64,000 nucleotides of DNA, from positions 2,612 to 66,611 of the forward strand of contig CAJONJ010000039.1 in the NCBI GenBank assembly GCA_905236005.1, given 5' to 3'. The notes under the pieces are model-generated. The model did not search any database and had not been told where the DNA came from. It saw nothing but the letters and a program-made list of their open reading frames with translations. Source of the stretch: an uncultured Alphaproteobacteria bacterium (GTDB taxonomy: Bacteria; Pseudomonadota; Alphaproteobacteria; Rs-D84). Shown here in pieces: positions 10,920 through 21,745 of the stretch (position 1 is its first letter; the number at the start of each line of letters is the position of its first letter). The translations under genes were made by a program, and so were the position numbers.

Positions 10920-10969
10920 GTTCGAAAGTTGTCTTTTTGAAAAAGGCTATTTTTCTACTACTTTTGAAC
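10920..10969. repeat. about 50-nt dispersed repeat with 9-bp imperfect terminal inverted repeats (GTTCGAAAG...CTTTTGAAC), copy 1
   Basis: Aligns with the copies at 11854-11903 and 13222-13270. All three share GTTCGAAAGT, a central TTTnAAAAAnGC block and a terminal CTTTTGAAC. Confidence 0.5.
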
Positions 10970-11683
10970 CATAGAATTTTGTTTTTGTTGTAAAAGTATA
11001 TAATCTTTCATCATTTTTTGCACTGCACCCGGTAAATCTGTTTTAATTGCTTCTGGTGTTATATACTTATCAACAAACGGATTTATAAACTTTTCTTGAA
11101 TATGTATACCAAAAAATTTTATACCAATTAAGTCAACAATCCGTTCTTTGAAATTTTGTGGAACATTATATTTTTCAATTATTGGTTTTTCTATTAAAAT
11201 ATGAATAACTTCATGCAACATAGTATTCAATATCTTTTCTTGATTATCTGGATACCGTGACATACGAAATACAATTTTTGCTTTTTTATCAGATGCAAAA
11301 TACGAAGCACCATTACCATATGCACATAATATTTCTAATTCATTTGGCATTGTCGTGTTCCACGATTTTAACAAAGGAACCAAAAACTTACTTATTCCAC
11401 GTTCCATCATCGGTATAACATAAGATTTCATAATTGAATCGTATTTTGTTAAATCATTAACGTTATAAATTTCTTGTTTGAAAAATTTACTATATTTTGC
11501 TATGTCTTTGTCAGTAAGAGTTTCTTTTTCAAACATTTCTTTGACTATTGGATTCTCGGGATTTGGAACAAAATTATTCATTGTATATCCAAAATGTTTT
11601 AAATTGGTATGAAACTCATGATGCTCTTCTAAAATAAATTGCCACATTTCTTTTTGGGTCATCGGTCTTATTGTTATTTGCAT
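10958..11683 (-). CDS. hypothetical protein with HEXXH motif (putative zinc metallopeptidase-like), 241 aa
   Basis: Intact ORF containing MLHEVIHILIE. Lies inside the tRNA-flanked islet. Confidence 0.4.
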   Translation of the reverse strand: MQITIRPMTQKEMWQFILEEHHEFHTNLKHFGYTMNNFVPNPENPIVKEMFEKETLTDKDIAKYSKFFKQEIYNVNDLTKYDSIMKSYVIPMMERGISKFLVPLLKSWNTTMPNELEILCAYGNGASYFASDKKAKIVFRMSRYPDNQEKILNTMLHEVIHILIEKPIIEKYNVPQNFKERIVDLIGIKFFGIHIQEKFINPFVDKYITPEAIKTDLPGAVQKMMKDYILLQQKQNSMVQK

Positions 11684-11853: not shown

Positions 11854-11903
11854 GTTCGAAAGTATAAGTTTCAAAAATGCACGTTTTTGTTCAACTTTTG
11901 AAC
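11854..11903. repeat. GTTCGAAAGT...CTTTTGAAC repeat, copy 2, overlapping the start of the transporter gene
   Basis: See copy 1. The ATG at 11877 lies inside the element. Confidence 0.5.
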
Positions 11904-12845
11904 TTTTTTGCAATTTGTTTCCTTTTATGCTACAATTCCTATGCTATGAATTTACTAGGTGTCTTGGTTTCTTTTATCAGTCCGATGGCATATGCAGTAT
12001 CAAATATCTTTGATGCGTATGTGTCTGGCAGTGTTTTCAAGCGTATTCCAACAACGATATTTTATGTAAACCTGACCAACATTCTGGGGATTCTATGTTT
12101 GCCACTGTTCGGGTCAATTCATTCTTTGTCGCCAGCTGCGTGGTTGTTTGTGTTGTTATCGTCCATCATAAATGTTGGGTACCAGTTTCCGTATTTTGCC
12201 GCATTAAATAAAACAGACACATCGGTGGTGGTGGCTCTGTTTCAATTGAAAAAGGTCTTTATACCATTGTGGGCTTTTTTGATTGTTGGCGAAGTTTTAC
12301 ATCCGGTTCAATATGCCGGGTTTGGTATCATAATCTTGTTTTCATTGCTGCTGAATATAAATCCAAAGGCAAATATAAAAATCAATGCTGGGTTTTGGTT
12401 GATGTGTCTGACGGCTATAATACTGTCGTTTGAGGGTGCTTTCTACAAGGCATTACTGGAACATACAGATTGGGTGTCGGCGGCATTCTGGGTGTCGGTT
12501 ATATCTTTTGTTGTCCAATTCATGATGATATTCTGTCGTCCAGTACGCAAAGATATTGTTAAAAACTTTGGCAAATATCGCAAAAAGTTCGGTATGTTTT
12601 TGTTTGTGGAATTCTTTGATCAATTGGGATCATTCAGTCCTATATTCGCACTGTCGTTGATTCCGGTTCTGGTTGATTCTGGGATTCAATCGGTTCAGCC
12701 GATTTTTGTTGTGCTTTATGGTGTAATCTTGGCACGATTTTTCGGCAAGCGATTCCACGAAGACATTTCTAGCGGCACGATGATTAAAAAGATAGTTTGT
12801 TTCGTTATGATTGGTGCCGGTGTAATGATGACATTGATATCATAA
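11877..12845 (+). CDS. DMT-superfamily (EamA-like) membrane transporter, about 10 TM
   Basis: 322 aa, polytopic, two-repeat hydrophobic architecture. The true start is possibly the downstream Met (MNLLGVL). Confidence 0.5.
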   Translation: MHVFVQLLNFFAICFLLCYNSYAMNLLGVLVSFISPMAYAVSNIFDAYVSGSVFKRIPTTIFYVNLTNILGILCLPLFGSIHSLSPAAWLFVLLSSIINVGYQFPYFAALNKTDTSVVVALFQLKKVFIPLWAFLIVGEVLHPVQYAGFGIIILFSLLLNINPKANIKINAGFWLMCLTAIILSFEGAFYKALLEHTDWVSAAFWVSVISFVVQFMMIFCRPVRKDIVKNFGKYRKKFGMFLFVEFFDQLGSFSPIFALSLIPVLVDSGIQSVQPIFVVLYGVILARFFGKRFHEDISSGTMIKKIVCFVMIGAGVMMTLIS

Positions 12846-13003
12846 ATTTAAACACAACATAAGTATTTTCTTCATATTTTAACCTTTGTTTTACAAGCAT
12901 GATAATACAACAAATCCTACCCTTTTTTCAAACCTATTATTTCAAATCTGCTAACCCTAATTTCTCTTTCAACGCATCAATCTCTTGACCTATTTCTAAT
13001 AAT

Positions 13004-13072
13004 TCGGCTCGAGAACTGCACACCGAGCACAACCAAGATTTAACAAAAAGCATCCATTGTGGATGTTTTTTT
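13004..13072 (+). ncRNA. candidate small RNA or repeat unit, copy B, with terminator CATCCATTGTGGATG plus T7
   Basis: See copy A. Lies downstream of the transporter gene. Confidence 0.25.
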
Positions 13073-13203
13073 GTTAAATATGTGTGTTGTGTTGGGTTTG
13101 AGCCACCAAAAAAGGTGGTTCACTACAAGCGAGAGCCAGACGGAAGTATGGCGGTCAACCTACAAGGTTGACGAGTGCAGTGAGGCAAAAATTTCATTTT
13201 TAC

Positions 13204-13218
13204 CAAATCCATCTCCCG
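13204..13218 (+). repeat. 15-nt direct repeat of the tRNA-fMet 3' end (CAAATCCATCTCCCG); putative distal att site
   Basis: Exact 15-mer match to tRNA positions 10840-10854, 2.36 kb downstream in the same orientation. Confidence 0.4.
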
Positions 13219-13221
13219 TAA

Positions 13222-13270
13222 AGTTGAAAGTTTGATTTTAAAAAATACGATTTTTATAGTGCTTTTGAAC
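13222..13270. repeat. GTTCGAAAGT...CTTTTGAAC repeat, copy 3 (AGTTGAAAGT variant)
   Basis: See copy 1. Immediately follows the att-like repeat and overlaps the 3' end of the 13254 gene. Confidence 0.45.
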
Positions 13271-13847
13271 CGTCTTTTAATATTTTCCCTAAAATAGCCA
13301 TATCTAATTTTTCAAAATCTGGTTTATATAATTCAAATTTATCTTGCTGTTGAATCAATTTATCCCATAAAATATCAGATTGTTTTCTGGACATATTTGC
13401 AAAAACAGTTTTATCTTTTAAAACATATATTTTTATGTTTTTGTCTTTAATTTCCTGCATAATATCAATTGTAATAACATTTTTTATTTTCACATCTGTC
13501 AAAGAATAATATTCATCTTCTATATCATGTTTAAAACCAACAGAATCTAATTCATAAACATATGCTTTTTCTGGAACATTTTGCTTTAAACATTCAACAT
13601 ATAATTCATTATTTTTTACTGGGCTTTTATAACCGGTAGCAACTAATCGCATAATTGCATAAAGACGTGCACGTACAAAATCAGATGTTGCAAAAGCAGC
13701 AATTATTGGTGTTTTCATATTATTGATGTAACCTGGTTTCATACGAATAAAACCATCTGTTATTTTTATTTCAGACCCATGATAAAGAATTTTTGGTAAA
13801 CTGTTATTCATAACGGATATTATATCACAAACCATAAAATAATTCAA
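13254..13847 (-). CDS. hypothetical protein, 197 aa, translationally coupled to the upstream surface-protein gene (ATGA overlap)
   Basis: Intact ORF with no recognisable motifs. Confidence 0.4.
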   Translation of the reverse strand: MNYFMVCDIISVMNNSLPKILYHGSEIKITDGFIRMKPGYINNMKTPIIAAFATSDFVRARLYAIMRLVATGYKSPVKNNELYVECLKQNVPEKAYVYELDSVGFKHDIEDEYYSLTDVKIKNVITIDIMQEIKDKNIKIYVLKDKTVFANMSRKQSDILWDKLIQQQDKFELYKPDFEKLDMAILGKILKDGSKAL

Positions 13848-16833
13848 TTTACACTGACAGTATCGTCATAAATATAATAAACACCACTCGAAACACTTGT
13901 CCCAACTGGAATATTTACTTTCAAACTATTACCGCTTTGTAAATTACTGAAATCTGCATTCATTGGCACAAGTGTTGTTCCCATATTAGCATAAAAATCA
14001 GGAATGCCGTCATTATCAATATCAACATTTAATGACGGTGTCATTTGTTTTGTTCTGCGTAAATACACATATTTATCTCCAATATGTAATATATGACCAC
14101 ATTGTGCAGATTCCCACATACCAGCGGGTGCAAACAAACCACTTTGACAAGGTATTATTCCCTGATTGTTTATTTCATCAAAACTGTAAGTACCACCAGG
14201 ACAATAATTATTTACTGGACATTTCGAGCACACATTGCTGTTAGCTGGCAAATAATATCCATTATTACAAGACAAACTGCTTGCCACAACTTCTAAGCAA
14301 CCATTAACACTTGTGGTCGCACCATTTGCTGTACCGTCTGCTGTATATCCAGAATCGCATGTACATGTACTACGTGTATTCTTAGCTGGTGTGGAGCTGT
14401 TTGCGCCACATGCATAGCAAGATGTACTATCATATTTATAATAATTTGTCGCACACGTTTTACGTGCATAATATGTTGTTATAGCAGGGACTGCTGATGT
14501 AACTGGTGCAATTGTTGTAACGGTATTATCAGTAATATCCTGAGTTATTGCCCAACTTGTTGAAATATCATAATGTCCGTTACCACCTGGTGCAGGCAAA
14601 CTAATCGCTGGTAATGTGCACGCTGTATTGTAGAACAATTTTAATTGTGCATTAGTTGTACCTTCTGCCACACTAGCAACATAACATCCAATTCCAGACA
14701 ACCCCTCTATTACACCAGAATAACCGTTTTTATGTAATGTAATCATATAATAACAATCTGTCTGAACAGTAGAACCCACATCACTAGACCAACCCACACC
14801 TATCTCTGTCGCACAACTATTTATACCTTGATCAGTAGTATCAAAATACAATTGCCCCCCAGGGCACCAATTGCCAGCAGTGCAAGTTGTGCAAGTTTGC
14901 GAGTTTGCAGGTATATATTTACCTGCAGAACAAACTGTAAAACCATCCGCCAAGACGCAATCAGCAGAACTGGTCGATGTTTCTGTCAGTGTGATATCCC
15001 CAGGGGCACATTGGGTTCTTTGGCTGACTGAACCATAAGATGTCATACTAGCAGAAGAATAATAACCTATTCCAACATTTTCACAAGAGGACCCACCAAA
15101 TGTCCCCAAAACACCCCCAGCAACAAAATCGCCAGTTCCACTGTTACCAAAGAATCTACCACTAACCAGATCATACATACCAATTGCGTTATCAGACACA
15201 CGCCTAGCAGGTATAAAATCAAAAATTAACGTACTGTTTTCATACATTTTAAACCAATGTATGCGACCAGTTAACAGCGTGTCGTTACACCCACCAACAC
15301 AACCATTAGAAAACAATCTATATTTGTTATTTGAAATAATTGACCCACTAAAAGTACCAGATGTAGATGCGTTATCCACAGATAAAGATCTATTGTTACC
15401 TGTAAATTCGTATGTAATATGTTTTATCTCCCCAGCATTAAAAATTCCACCGACTGTTATTTTTGAACCTGTGCTCGAACCTTGAGCATTAGCAAATGCA
15501 ACCCATACACCAAATTTGTTTTCCTTAAAATTAGCCGCATGACCATTCAACGCGTCCTGATTTCCACCAAAATGCCCAAGAGTTCCAGAACCTTCTACCG
15601 AAGAACTATATTCAAGTTCCGCTTTAAAAGACGTTGAAGAAATCACATGGCCCGTATCAATATACTGTTTTCCATTTGCTTCTATATACGACAACCTTTC
15701 GTATTCACCTGTCCATTTTCCAGCAGGGCAACTGATTTTACAATCAGAAATAGACGTTTTTCCATCTTGTACATCACCATCATAACCCGATGGACACGGC
15801 AAACAGACACTTCCACTAAGATATTCCGCACCTGTACACGAGGTATGCTGAATTATCGCACAGGCTTTTTTGCTGTCCCAACTGTTTTTATACGCACTAT
15901 AATAAGTATCGGTAACATCATCTGTTCCATTTGGACAGCTTGTTACCATGTTGGATTTTTTAAATGCAGAATTAAATAAATTAGTAGCAGTTTGTCCATG
16001 TAACCCCAGGAAAGTATTACCAGGAATATATTGATTAGTCGTCGTAAAATTAACCTCAAAAAAAACGTATACATAAACATGTTGGCCGCAGCACCATCTA
16101 TATTTGGGAATAAATTATCTGGAAACACAGACAGCTTCTTGCATTGATAGAAAGCACTACGAAACATACTTTCTGCAGACCCATATGCATAACTAAACAA
16201 ACCATCAGGAATACCTGTCAAATTTGTACATTTATCAAAAACGGAACGAAACAAATTTTTCTTCGCGGTTGTTACACCAGAAAATAAATTCCCAGAAATT
16301 GTTTGCAACTCTGTACACCCGTTGCATAAATCAAAAAACGTTGGTTTGTCACTGTCATTAGTACCACCATTCAGCGTCGGAAAAGCCGAACCAATACTGC
16401 CATCTAAAGAAGCAATAAGAGTTGGTGTTCCACCGGTGCGTGTTGATATATTGTTGTTTGAAGCACCAAATCTGATTGCGGCACCAGATGAATCTTTATC
16501 ATTATTATAACTTGTTGTATTATATCCTGTTGCAAGTCCTGCAAATTTTATTATTCTTTGACCAGCCGTCGCATAAGTATGAGAGTATTCTGTCGGGGTA
16601 GTATTGTTATTTCGTGTAATGATTTCCACAGAGCTTCCATCATTCCAATCAACATAGAATATTCCTGATGCCGATAAAACAAATTTAAATACCGCATTTG
16701 CATTCAGGTTTGTCGTAGTTATTGTAAATTTTGTATCAACACAACCGTTTCCTGTATCTATTTCAGATGCCGTACACGCAACAGCCACTGTAATATTCAT
16801 CACGAATATACAAAGTGCACATATAAAACACAA
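13844..16833 (-). pseudogene. frameshifted or phase-variable large secreted surface protein (BspA-like LRR N-region plus Cys-rich CPxG repeat region), about 1000 aa if restored
   Basis: The track gives two ORFs (15943..16833 and 13844..15949) overlapping by 7 nt. The 3' 45 codons of the upstream ORF are low-complexity junk that begins exactly at the A8 tract at 16058-16065. Adding one A fuses the frames in phase (...NMFMYTFFFEVNFTTTNQYIPGNTFLGLHGQTATNLFNSAFKKSNMVTSCPNG...). The protein has an N-terminal signal peptide, LRR-like FxxCxxLTxIPDxLF repeats and many CxxCPxG motifs. Confidence 0.55.
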
Positions 16834-17002
16834 AAAAATATTTTTTAATTTCTTTTCCTTTTTTTTAGTTTTTTTGTGTCATAGCAAAAAAAACATTCCC
16901 TCCATATTAGGAATAATACTAACAAAATTGGATAATTTTATACAAGCATATTTTTGTTAAAAATTGCAGCTGATAACAATAAATAGAAACCATATTTTAT
17001 GG

Positions 17003-20000
17003 TTATATATTTTCATAAACACCGTATAAATCAGGACTTGGTTGTACAGTTTGTCCATCTGTAATTTTTTCTCGCAATCTTTTATTTGCTAATTTTAACG
17101 CATTAACAATACTTAATTTTCCAGGAACCATACTATTTGATTGTTCTAAATTTTTAATTCTGTCTGTTGGAACCAATGTTGGTTTATAATCTTTAACATC
17201 TTCTATGTTTATAATTTTATCTAATATTTTAATTTTTTTATGGTTATGATTGTATTTAACAGACATATTTTTATTTAAAATTTTAGATATCATTTTATAA
17301 AACAAATCATTTTTAATACCCATATCGTCTGTAAAGGTATCATTAACATTTTTATCAATAACACCTGATGTTTTAAGTGCAACAATAATATCAAAAAAAT
17401 CTTTATCGGTTAAACTTTTACCAGGATGGTGTTTACCATCTTCATCTATAAATGGCTTTTTATATTCAATTATATCAGACAAAGCCAACAAGCCACGTCT
17501 GACACATTCAAGATATTCAGAATGTTTTTGTTTTATCAATTCTTTTTCTATGACACTAGTATCTGGCACTTGTATATTTGGCATATTCAGCATCGGTTCA
17601 TATTTGTTTTCGGCAAAAAACATATTACGTAAATCAGATTGATAATATTTATACATAATCTTGGTTATGTATTTTTTTATTGTTTCATCATTATTTTGAA
17701 TATCGTTTATTGCTTTATTTAAAACATCTGATATTGATTTATCTTTTCTAGAATTCTGTATAATTTTATAAATTAACAACCCCAATAATCTTCTATCTAT
17801 ATCACTTGGTAAATTATCTATTTGTGCACCAGTATCAAAAATACCTATATGAACAACACCTTCTTGATCTGTATAAAAATTTTGCTGTCCAGCATGCCTA
17901 TCTGTATCCCATTTTTTACCAGATAACAATATTGCTAGTTCCAAAGCAACATATGCTTTTGCGTTATCATGTTGTTGTTTATCTGTATGTTTTGCACTGG
18001 TCAAAGAATCACCTTTGGCTAATTTCATAATTTTAAAAGCATTTTTATTATTTGGCATTGCACCAAACGCAACCCATTCAGCCACATCCACTTTATATTT
18101 TTGATTATTTAAACTGATTTCAAAAGGCGAATAATTATCAACAGCTTGTTTATATTTTTCATAATCTTTGTCGATATCTATTTCGTTATGACAAGATTTT
18201 TCTGCTTGTTCAAAAATATTTTTTAAAACACCAAATTTCTTTTCATCTCGCCACACCATAGATTTAATAGTTCCAGAAATAAAATCCAAATTTGTCATCA
18301 TTTTGTTTTGAATATTTTCACGCATTAACGCAACAACACAATCTTGGTTATCATATTTTACCTGAACTGTAACATAAATAGAACCAGCACCTAAAACATC
18401 ACCAACATAAGATATTTTACTATATTCTTCTGACGGCAAAGATTGTTTCAACATATCAAAAATTTCTTTACGATCTGGAACACTTGCTTTATCACGCAAA
18501 GTTGCTAGTTCTGTTCGTATTTCTGCTGGCAAAGATGGTAAATACGATAACATTTGTCCAAATTTTATAAATGCATCACCTTTGTATTGGAAAAAACCTT
18601 TTAATCCACGACCAATTTGTTGATTAGAATCTGTATTTTTTACAACATTGTTTGTTTTCACCATTGTTAATAATGTGCACAAATCAAAATTACGTTCCGC
18701 CATGGTTTCATTATTATATACAGATTCGATAACTACACCTATGGCGTTTTTTGTTTCTTCATCTGTTTTCATACTTTTAAATATTCTATTTAAAACAAAT
18801 TGTATTTTTTCGTCTGGATTTTTGCTGTAACCATCTAATAATGGATTCAAAAAATATGCCTGAACCGGTAATGGCGAATGTGAAAAATTATCATGAATTT
18901 GTTCTAAAACTTGTTTATTTCCCCACTCTTCTTTTCCAAAAAAAGGCTTATTTTGAATTGCTGATAAAAATTTATTGCAAGATTCATCTGTAAAATTATT
19001 TGTTAAAAATTCTATACCTTCTTCTGCTAAATTGCTGACACATAAAAAATCCACAACATTTTGTGCAATACGTACAGGCCAATCATATTTCACAGCATCT
19101 TCATTACCTGCTTTGCTTTTATATTTAGCATCAAATAAATTTGCAATTTCAAATTGTGCAGTAATTTTATCTGCTATTTTTTTACTTAAATTTTCAATAC
19201 ATATATTTATACCTTCTTTGTTTATTGTTTTTAAATTATCCAACCATTTTACACAAGAATCCACTTTGTTTAAATAATCCATTTGTCTGGTATCTTTACC
19301 CAAACGCACAGCCCAATAATTTGCGATATAATCTAATAATTTTTCCCTTTCGGTCATTACACCCAAACATCTTTTTTCTTTATATTCACCATATTCTTGC
19401 AATAAAATATTCACAGCTAATCTTAAACGATTGTTTGTTTCCTGTGTATTAAAATTCGTTTCGTTAATTTTATACTTGGTTATATCATTAACCAATATTT
19501 TTAACATATCGTTTTTATGTGTAAAATATGTAGAGAAAAATTTATATTTTAACATATAATCATATATATCAATTTTATCTTGAACTGAATATTTTTTATA
19601 TGATTCTACATTAATACGCTTATCAATAAAATTCTGTTGAGGCAGTTTCAGTCCTATAATAAAATGGTCAAATAATTTATTATCTTTTGAAAATTTTACA
19701 AAATCTATTACATCTAATTCATATTTAGCCATATAATTAAATAATACTAAATTAAAAATAAATTCATCACTATCTTTTAACGTATAACAAATATTATATA
19801 ATTCATCTTTATTTTTTGGTGGTGTTATACCCAGAAAATCTAATATTTTTTGTGTTTTGTTTGCATCATCTATATTAGAACCATTTGCTAATATATGATA
19901 AGCTAATGATATAAATTGTGAATATTTTAATACACCAGAATATTTTTCAATAACATATTTATTATTAATCGCATGTTCCAGAATTATTTCTGAATCTTTT

Positions 20001-21745
20001 ATAAAAAACAATCTGTCATATACTTGTAAAACTTTATCTTTGTTTAATGATTTTTGTGTAGCGAAATCAATAACATTTAATATAACAGGACGTAGTTTTT
20101 CTTGTTTTAAATCTAAATGATGATCTACTGTGCTTTTGTTACCAGAATCATAAATATTACTTTGACAACCAAAATAATTATAAAAATATTCGTTCTGTAT
20201 TCTGTTATATATTTTTTGGTACAATACATCAAATTCGTTTGGTAACATACTATGATTTCCAAATAATTCATCAACATCATGTTTATCTATAAAATCCCAA
20301 CAATCTAAACAAGATTGAACGCTTTTTTCTTTATCATATTTTGCTAATAAATTTAACAATTTGATTTTATTATCATAAAAATCTTCAAACAAATATTCTT
20401 GAACAATACCGTTTTTATTTACAGAATATATTTCTGTTTTAACGGTGTCTTTATAACCATAAGAAATATTATTATAATACAATCGTATTACATCATTAAC
20501 AGATTGATTATCATAAGATTTTAATTGTTCAAATGGTAATAATTTACCAATATTATCTTTGCCAAAACCTGTAAAAATTGAAACATCTTTTTTATCTTTA
20601 TAATCAGCAAAAAAATCTAAATATTTATAAATATTTTTGTCATATTTTAATATTTTTTCTGCATATTTTACAGCATTGTCTTTGTTATACACGTTTTTAC
20701 TGAAATCTGTTAAACAATCATTAAATTCTTTAAAAATACCAAACAATTGTAATTGTAAATCTTTTAAATATATATCAGCATAATCCCATTGATATGTGTT
20801 CATAAATATATCTTGTAAAAATTTTTCTTCTTGTTTTGTCCCTGTTTTTTTAAGCATCTCAATATATAAAACAAGTTTTTTAAAAAAATCATCCTGTCTT
20901 TTTTTATTATTTTTAATTTCTTCCATACCACTCAGTTGTACCAAAAATTGCAAAAGAACCATCTGTCCAAATTTATCACGTATATCATAAAAACTAGTTG
21001 TTCCAAAATTATATTCTAATAATGTATCAATATACGATTCTTGATCTTCTTTTGGTAATAATTGTACTGTTTTTATTTTGAAAAAATTCCAATCAATATC
21101 AGTTTTATCTTTATCAATATCTGTAAAATGTTTACCACGTTGTCTTTCTAAAACAGCAATTGCAGCCATAACATTATTTAATCTAAAAGAATCACTGCCA
21201 TGAACATCAGCTATTCTAGCAATTACATCTGAAAAATTTTTATTTCCATTGATACCTATTTTTTCCCATGCAGACATTGCATAATTTGGATTATAACCAG
21301 CATTCATCATAAATTCAACCGCCAAAGTATCACAAGATTGTTCCTGAAAAATAGTATTTTTATTATTTGGAAATTTTAATTGCCAATAATAATGTCCCAA
21401 CTCATGTGCTAAAACAGCAGCAAATTCATCTTCGTTATCCAGTTGTTTTATCAACCCACCAGAAACAGCTAAAACAGCTTTATATTTTGGATCTTTTATA
21501 TATTGTGAATCAGTAACAGTAAAAGCACCTACTTCATCTGAATTATACCCTGAACAATAAACTTCTTCTGGTTTAAGATTTAATTTATCATTATTTGCAT
21601 TTAAAAGCTTAGTTAAAACATTTTTGATTTTTTCAGATATTAATTTATTTACTTTATCATCAGGATTATACAAACGCAGTTTTTCAAAAATATCTTTGTC
21701 TAATATTTCTTGATTTTCTACTTTTTTTTCTTCTGTATCAGCCAT
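17003..21745 (-). CDS. giant 1580-aa multidomain protein: N-terminal M48-like zinc metallopeptidase domain, long helical middle, C-terminal UbiB/ABC1-like atypical kinase domain
   Basis: The N-terminal region has AVLAHELGHYYW followed by EQSCDTLAVEFMMNAGYNP...EKI, matching the HEXXH...E..AD pattern of M48/HtpX peptidases. The C-terminal region has IKFGQMLSYLPSLPAEIRTELATLRDKASVP, ...GAGSIYVTVQV, ...TDRHAGQQNF and ...IGIFDTGAQ. These align with the UbiB/ADCK signature KFGQxLSxRxDxxP...LxxLQDxVxP, the ASIAQVH loop, HADxHPGN and IDxG. No TM segments. Confidence 0.6.
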   Translation of the reverse strand: MADTEEKKVENQEILDKDIFEKLRLYNPDDKVNKLISEKIKNVLTKLLNANNDKLNLKPEEVYCSGYNSDEVGAFTVTDSQYIKDPKYKAVLAVSGGLIKQLDNEDEFAAVLAHELGHYYWQLKFPNNKNTIFQEQSCDTLAVEFMMNAGYNPNYAMSAWEKIGINGNKNFSDVIARIADVHGSDSFRLNNVMAAIAVLERQRGKHFTDIDKDKTDIDWNFFKIKTVQLLPKEDQESYIDTLLEYNFGTTSFYDIRDKFGQMVLLQFLVQLSGMEEIKNNKKRQDDFFKKLVLYIEMLKKTGTKQEEKFLQDIFMNTYQWDYADIYLKDLQLQLFGIFKEFNDCLTDFSKNVYNKDNAVKYAEKILKYDKNIYKYLDFFADYKDKKDVSIFTGFGKDNIGKLLPFEQLKSYDNQSVNDVIRLYYNNISYGYKDTVKTEIYSVNKNGIVQEYLFEDFYDNKIKLLNLLAKYDKEKSVQSCLDCWDFIDKHDVDELFGNHSMLPNEFDVLYQKIYNRIQNEYFYNYFGCQSNIYDSGNKSTVDHHLDLKQEKLRPVILNVIDFATQKSLNKDKVLQVYDRLFFIKDSEIILEHAINNKYVIEKYSGVLKYSQFISLAYHILANGSNIDDANKTQKILDFLGITPPKNKDELYNICYTLKDSDEFIFNLVLFNYMAKYELDVIDFVKFSKDNKLFDHFIIGLKLPQQNFIDKRINVESYKKYSVQDKIDIYDYMLKYKFFSTYFTHKNDMLKILVNDITKYKINETNFNTQETNNRLRLAVNILLQEYGEYKEKRCLGVMTEREKLLDYIANYWAVRLGKDTRQMDYLNKVDSCVKWLDNLKTINKEGINICIENLSKKIADKITAQFEIANLFDAKYKSKAGNEDAVKYDWPVRIAQNVVDFLCVSNLAEEGIEFLTNNFTDESCNKFLSAIQNKPFFGKEEWGNKQVLEQIHDNFSHSPLPVQAYFLNPLLDGYSKNPDEKIQFVLNRIFKSMKTDEETKNAIGVVIESVYNNETMAERNFDLCTLLTMVKTNNVVKNTDSNQQIGRGLKGFFQYKGDAFIKFGQMLSYLPSLPAEIRTELATLRDKASVPDRKEIFDMLKQSLPSEEYSKISYVGDVLGAGSIYVTVQVKYDNQDCVVALMRENIQNKMMTNLDFISGTIKSMVWRDEKKFGVLKNIFEQAEKSCHNEIDIDKDYEKYKQAVDNYSPFEISLNNQKYKVDVAEWVAFGAMPNNKNAFKIMKLAKGDSLTSAKHTDKQQHDNAKAYVALELAILLSGKKWDTDRHAGQQNFYTDQEGVVHIGIFDTGAQIDNLPSDIDRRLLGLLIYKIIQNSRKDKSISDVLNKAINDIQNNDETIKKYITKIMYKYYQSDLRNMFFAENKYEPMLNMPNIQVPDTSVIEKELIKQKHSEYLECVRRGLLALSDIIEYKKPFIDEDGKHHPGKSLTDKDFFDIIVALKTSGVIDKNVNDTFTDDMGIKNDLFYKMISKILNKNMSVKYNHNHKKIKILDKIINIEDVKDYKPTLVPTDRIKNLEQSNSMVPGKLSIVNALKLANKRLREKITDGQTVQPSPDLYGVYENI

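Follow-up and report, generated by a model that had tools for sequence, protein, structure and literature searches.

Poly-G/C or poly-A/T tracts in the surface-protein genes of Neisseria, Campylobacter, Haemophilus and Mycoplasma constitute simple sequence repeat (SSR) contingency loci. In the slipped-strand frameshift pseudogenes of AT-rich host-associated bacteria, an insertion or deletion (indel) in an A/T run within a codon pair truncates a protein for which the orthologues are intact. Transcriptional slippage reportedly rescues the poly(A) genes of endosymbionts, and in tssM1 of Citrobacter rodentium, an interrupted gene with an A11 run, the frame is restorable by one added nucleotide (PMC4256274). 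The locus described here lies within 64,000 nucleotides, hereafter the window, of contig CAJONJ010000039.1 (positions 2,612 to 66,611; assembly GCA_905236005.1) from an uncultured alphaproteobacterium of the order Rs-D84, in which a gene on the minus strand is divided into two open reading frames (ORFs) by a run of eight T's. The analysis indicates that the gene is probably a recently formed pseudogene of a conserved, secreted, adhesin-like protein with leucine-rich repeats (LRRs), a LamG-like domain and Cys-rich modules, arising from a +2 insertion by slippage and from the loss of its start codon. Like the frameshift pseudogenes, it combines an A/T-run indel in a codon pair that truncates the protein, intact orthologues, a second lesion in the same gene and a reduced, AT-rich genome (33% GC). 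The first-pass annotation had proposed either a phase-variation candidate or a fresh pseudogene; the latter is favoured, whereas phase variation is without its defining evidence, as only T8 was seen and the start is lost.

The disrupted gene extends over 13844..16857 (coordinates are those of the window and features are on the minus strand unless noted), from the codon equivalent to the start (16857-16855) to the stop codon (13846-13844), both placed by orthology with intact relatives. It comprises ~1003 codons after removal of two T's, and homologues align with it end to end. The upstream ORF (15943..16833) encodes 296 aa from a TTG start and the downstream ORF (13844..15949) encodes 701 aa, with the overlap of 7 nt that was originally reported. 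When the frame was evaluated as a function of run length, T9 produced an open 996-aa frame and T7 and T10 stayed closed. The out-of-frame tail of the upstream ORF (15946..16057; LRLILRRLINIF...KNPTW), terminated by a TAA stop at 15943..15945, derives from DNA that encodes the conserved EVNFTTTNQYIPGNTF... in relatives and that in the correct frame specifies the last LRRs. The tail had been described as low-complexity junk that begins at the run; its length is about 38-40 codons and not the 45 first given. A search of 5.8 billion protein clusters yielded 62 homologues of the restored protein. The best of these (P0001-P0008) are 986-1003 aa long with 68-87% identity and 99-100% coverage of the restored protein, and the full-length homologues are 986-1005 aa long with 76-88% identity and 99-100% coverage. 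The cluster with both window fragments also contains intact proteins of 994 aa (P0065, found on 9 contigs) and 1005 aa (P0066, from the metagenome-assembled genome (MAG) UBA1185), and a protein alignment of 17 sequences (A1) is collinear through the ORF junction. Given this coverage by homologues of 986-1005 aa, the split feature is confirmed to be real, and to be one gene rather than a chance arrangement. The end-to-end homologues bear out the original proposal of a single gene split by a homopolymer frameshift, and that of a large secreted, Cys-rich, LRR-containing adhesin-like protein of ~1000 residues was likewise upheld.

The T8 run (A8 on the plus strand) is at 16058..16065 within the Phe-Phe pair of an LRR (..NMFMYTFF followed directly by EVNF..) and has two T's above the T6 of the orthologues. 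The coding strand around it reads ...ATG TTT ATG TAT ACG TTTTTTTT GAG GTT AAT..., with T8 at 16065-16058. Each of the 15 related loci examined contains a single intact ORF, and the local sequence is kept in 12. The run is TTTTTT (ACG TTT TTT GAG, Phe-Phe) in L003, L004, L006, L008-L011, L013 and L016-L018 and TTTTAT (ACG TTT TAT GAG, Phe-Tyr) in L005 and L007; the more distant L012, L014 and L015 have one open frame each. For 30 nt on each side of the run the window is identical to L008 and L010. No T7, T8, T9 or T10 allele was present in relatives among the 12 loci retaining the local sequence, and a pattern scan of JGI metagenomes allowing any 4-12 nt between the flanks recovered T6 alleles only. 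Since the orthologues with the local sequence show T6 or TTTTAT, the lesion is, on this comparison, a +2 insertion (T6 to T8) and not the loss of one base from A9. One added A, as first suggested, does reopen the frame (996 codons), but A9 with its 'FFF' is not ancestral, the relatives having T6 and Phe-Phe. Comparison with related strains had been proposed as a check, and because the relatives have one intact ORF, the two-ORF arrangement that was to be looked for among them was not found.

The run-length evidence derives from assembled sequences. Across 3400 nt, T8 and start region included, the window is matched with 100% identity by the ENA scaffold L001 (138.8 kb) and by the Logan contig L002. 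NCBI, ENA and Logan together have 4-5 contigs with the 701-aa and 285-aa fragments (the latter being the public call for the upstream part). When the neighbouring 193-aa and EamA products were used for exact look-ups, each contig with this strain's context showed the 285 + 701 aa split, and no intact allele was found. No intact protein more than 90% identical was present among the 5.8 billion clusters searched.

The start region contains a further difference from the orthologues. All seven aligned orthologues begin with ATG AAG AAA TTA AAA AAT (MKKLKN), after which come a hydrophobic core and a cleavage site of the AxA type. In the window AAG AAA TTA AAA AAT is present in frame, but GAA (16855..16857, alignment A2) replaces the ATG. 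The first in-frame ATG/GTG/TTG after the upstream stop is a TTG at 16831..16833, located within the ancestral signal peptide, in its hydrophobic core; a start at this TTG gives MCFICALCIFV.., which is without the charged n-region. All in-frame starts that remain are internal to the signal peptide. Public gene calls on identical contigs begin later, at an ATG that gives the 285-aa product. The signal peptide previously noted is present only in part, the ATG and the charged MKKLK n-region being untranslatable in the window. As judged from the alignment, loss of the canonical start codon is a second lesion besides the frameshift. Because the orthologous ATG is GAA, a T9 or T6 revertant would still be without the normal charged n-region.

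A conserved block is located at 16913..16955 (AAAAATAT.CTTGT....ATTTTG.TA), ~100 nt upstream of the start. The alignment shows it in all eight aligned loci (window, L003-L010), the remaining leader being variable, and its conservation suggests that it is probably a promoter or operator. In a promoter and terminator scan of 13000-17300, promoter scores were no better than those of shuffled sequences. The leader of the window also contains an out-of-frame ATG (16882-16880) and then an A7 run (16875-16869), together spanning 16869..16882, and loss of one A from the run would put this ATG in frame. The ATG was considered as the ancestral start and judged fortuitous, since in the alignment the orthologues have their A-rich untranslated leader at this place.

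The TTT TTT (Phe-Phe) pair of the LRR has gained two T's, probably by replication slippage, and GAA stands in place of the ATG at the orthologous start. A properly targeted full-length precursor would then be absent, and residual full-length product would arise solely by low-level polymerase or ribosome slippage on T8. Two features by which frameshift pseudogenes are recognized are present, namely uninterrupted orthologues and more than one lesion (the +2 indel and the loss of the start). Translation stops about 38 codons past the insertion, leaving about 74% of the protein outside the normal frame. Relaxed selection on the coding sequence was not detected by the ratio of nonsynonymous to synonymous substitution rates (dN/dS) or by singleton counts. 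Pairwise dN/dS was 0.18-0.24 for pairs including the window versus 0.16-0.25 for intact pairs, and singleton changes at otherwise invariant columns numbered 6 in the window versus 3-12 in close relatives. Since dN/dS equals that of intact pairs and the coding sequence still looks constrained, the inactivation appears to be recent. Rs-D84 genomes are reported not to accumulate pseudogenes and to have coding densities of 81-94% (PMC12306168), and the broken gene looks isolated in a window with a coding density of 89%.

Several observations weigh against a pseudogene. Deep sequencing in Neisseria revealed that runs of at least 8 are mostly variable (PMC5084427), and by that measure T8 is long enough for measurable slippage. 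The undecayed coding sequence would also fit a gene in occasional use, and the intact promoter-like block together with an ORF that has no further decay also fits a gene still in use. A start at the TTG at 16833 could give a weak signal peptide, and the start lesion may not be fully inactivating. The agreeing assemblies possibly all derive from one sample; the agreement is therefore between assemblers and not between samples. A minority of T9 or T6 may be present within the strain, the run length being known from assemblies.

Indel errors in sequencing classically occur at homopolymers, and the copies of the locus may all come from one read set. If the T8 were such a sequencing or assembly error, the true run would be T6 or T9 and the gene would be intact. 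In agreement with the genome composition of 33% GC, at which A8/T8 runs are commonplace, the window contains 95 long homopolymer runs (A/T of at least 7, G/C of at least 6). Inside long intact ORFs there are 14 other A8/T8 runs, and these keep the frame. The change is moreover +2 and not +/-1, and three pipelines (NCBI MAG, which is the window, ENA scaffold and Logan contig) are identical. A consensus error is highly improbable because the +2 change occurs at one run only, in a gene also bearing a separate lesion outside any homopolymer, the replacement of ATG with GAA. The error alternative raised in the first-pass annotation was set aside on this evidence.

The same run bears on whether the gene is a phase-variable contingency locus, in which T8 (OFF) and T9 or T6 (ON) would interchange by slippage and the assembly would have caught the OFF state. 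As in SSR contingency loci, a homopolymer is located inside an ORF of the surface or adhesin type and the frame is set by run length. Surface and secreted adhesin-like proteins are the class that is typically phase-varied, the ORF is otherwise pristine with the promoter block retained, and the 8-nt run is longer than in the orthologues and at the lower edge of instability (PMC5084427). The locus differs from the known examples in that the tract is short, that the long form is not conserved in the orthologues and that the start codon is lost. No tract-length polymorphism with ON and OFF states was found among the assemblies; the run is T6 or TTTTAT in relatives and T8 only in the strain, and an ON allele is unrecorded. 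The 14 other A8/T8 runs in ordinary intact genes make the tract not distinctive, and in the Neisseria survey most A/T tracts ranked as weak candidates (PMC5084427). Although T9 reopens the frame, one slip would not restore the normal precursor because the canonical start codon is gone. On balance an established phase-variable locus is unlikely. There is a slim chance that the T run is instead a newly born working switch operating by DNA or RNA polymerase slippage from a non-ATG start, with the strain caught OFF. If so, a contingency locus would have been seen at the moment of its origin, T6 to T8 at Phe-Phe, and the switched gene would be that of the most conserved large surface protein of a reduced-genome gut symbiont, probably living attached to other cells.

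A pseudogene could also be leaky, with some full-length protein made by RNA polymerase slippage on T8/A8 or by a -1 ribosomal slip on U UUU UUG. A -1 shift does restore the frame, the zero-frame UUU UUG after U forms an X XXY YYZ heptamer as read from the sequence, and transcriptional slippage on A/T runs is documented (PMC4256274). The likeness to tssM1 is that of an interrupted gene in which the frame is restorable by one added nucleotide in an A/T run; however, the documented runs are longer (e.g. A11 in tssM1, PMC4256274, versus 8 nt here), and the arrangement here is not conserved and is known from DNA sequence. No stable structure was predicted downstream of the run (minimum free energy -8.6 versus a shuffle mean of -12.1, z = +1.15), and the start-codon problem persists. 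Leaky rescue is for these reasons quite unlikely. The arrangement does not appear to be programmed, since it is absent from all orthologues. Programmed -1 ribosomal frameshifting was considered separately and is unlikely; the heptamer is present, but the downstream stimulator is absent (z = +1.15) and the orthologues are in frame with T6. An alternative code with TGA as Trp was rejected, because 8 of the 49 ORFs terminate at TGA and table 11 leaves the ORFs intact.

The junction between the two ORFs has the appearance of a translational-coupling site. The ATG opening the 701-aa ORF (15947..15949) overlaps the out-of-frame stop as ATGGTAA, and this codon (15949-15947) is ATG in the window versus CTG or TTG (Leu) in ten relatives. 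Gene fission, in which two separate functional genes exist and coupling at the new ATG allows translation of the 701-aa ORF, would explain a start codon exactly where the 10 relatives have Leu. However, the 701-aa product is without a signal peptide despite carrying most of the 41 Cys and the extracellular-type domains, about 38 junk residues terminate the upstream product inside a broken LRR, and the TTG in two relatives is already a possible start. Fission is extremely improbable. The ATG is probably a chance change from Leu to Met that mimics a coupling junction, and it is most simply read as neutral because the TTG of two relatives could already start translation.

The restored protein was investigated further for its domain organization. 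Searches with Pfam and NCBIfam produced nothing significant on the restored protein, and a sequence profile search of the PDB produced no match. In an AlphaFold2 model of the full-length protein, confidence is restricted to the N-terminal 590 residues. Residues about 30-115 (16513..16770) are predicted to form an all-beta sandwich with a predicted local distance difference test (pLDDT) score of 85-94; the sequence contains a PKD-like motif (YVDWxDGS...EYSHTY..G...IKF) that no profile confirms. Residues about 145-335 (15851..16425) form the LRR solenoid of ~24-residue repeats (MFrsxFxxCxxLxxIPxxLFxg), inside which the frameshift is positioned. The modelled solenoid is curved, is built of repeats within the 20-30 residues expected of LRRs and superposes on solved LRR domains. 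Residues about 385-590 (15086..15703, a range drawn from secondary structure) resemble a LamG (laminin G / LNS) beta-sandwich, with Cys-rich modules on both sides. The AlphaFold2 model of this region is beta-rich with moderate pLDDT of about 70-88, and Foldseek matched it to single-domain neurexin, agrin and laminin LG chains with E values of 1e-7 to 8e-6 and TM-scores (target) of 0.54-0.67. The order in the family is signal peptide, PKD-like motif, LRR, Cys-rich modules, LamG and Cys-rich modules. The protein contains 41 Cys with four or five CxxC motifs, and the earlier description of many CxxCPxG repeats was overstated.

The LRRs had been described as BspA-type. As in the BspA-type family (LRR_5, PF13306; structures 4h09 and 4gt6), the protein has a ~24-residue F..C..L..IP..LF repeat and an LRR solenoid, and distant relatives match LRR_5. 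In contrast, no match to LRR_5 (PF13306) was obtained at E up to 1 for the window protein and its 16 closest homologues, the best structural matches are eukaryotic LRRs of the Slit/Slitrk type, and the LamG and Cys-rich modules are atypical of BspA. Matches to Pfam LRR_5 were found in 4 of 27 distant homologous segments, with a best E of 3.4e-4. Based on the solenoid fold and these 4 of 27 segments, the LRR assignment is confirmed, whereas BspA describes a distant affinity, the window protein itself matching neither Pfam nor NCBIfam. The order of LRR solenoid, Cys-rich modules and LamG-like sandwich is shared with eukaryotic LRR-EGF-LamG proteins such as Slit, neurexin and agrin; however, there is no detectable sequence homology and the host is bacterial. 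The resemblance to eukaryotic adhesion proteins may be convergent or at the level of domains only.

The host is a reduced-genome gut alphaproteobacterium of the order Rs-D84, near Candidatus Enterousia, and the relatives that carry the gene are the Alphaproteobacteria MAGs UBA1185, UBA1218, UBA2947 and RUG791 and a Candidatus Enterousia species. The gene is located in a variable segment between a pair consisting of VirB4 and a 204-aa gene and the genes for DUF374-LpxK-LpxC, and the locus is syntenic with L010, L006 and L008. Compared with L010, nucleotide identity is 88% for this gene and 80-83% for the housekeeping flanks, which indicates that the intact relatives are other species and that conservation of the gene is unusually high. 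The window contains no paralogues of it.

Other ORFs were observed around the gene. A 197-aa ORF (13254-13847) with no family match, called as 193 aa in public records, has a TTG start in a 4-nt overlap with the stop of the broken gene and was found on contigs of this strain only. On the other side, a 1580-aa ORF (17003-21745) has a GC content of 24-30%, and its sole profile match is a short one to Peptidase_M48 at residues 92-120. In L010 and L005 the equivalent position lacks it, the 204-aa gene being immediately adjacent to the surface-protein gene, and going by this comparison it is probably a strain-specific insertion adjoining the broken gene. The exact product of a 322-aa EamA transporter gene (11877-12845, plus strand) is present on at least 23 public contigs in at least 3 gene contexts, and the adjacent 241-aa ORF without a Pfam match (10958-11683) has 95-98.5% nucleotide identity to loci with housekeeping flanks of about 80%. 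Together the two resemble a cassette that Rs-D84 species have exchanged. In L008 (4157-4675) and L009 (4157-4786), an ORF located 1.3 kb upstream of the intact orthologue has an Mtd_N domain, which is the N-terminal domain of the major tropism determinant of diversity-generating retroelements.

Formation of a pseudogene in this manner is an ordinary event of a known kind, and the value of recognizing it is that the gene is neither labelled a phase-variable adhesin nor annotated as two genes. The intact protein is the more interesting by-product, representing an uncharacterised family of ~1000 residues across Rs-D84 and Enterousia-like genomes of <1 Mb. Rs-D84 are gut bacteria with genomes of <1 Mb and a presumed dependence on partner cells (PMC12306168). 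Since the gene is better conserved (88% nt) than the neighbouring housekeeping genes (80-83%), the protein family is a candidate for the cell-contact function proposed for such partner-dependent bacteria. Its loss in one strain would indicate that the protein is dispensable in at least some settings.

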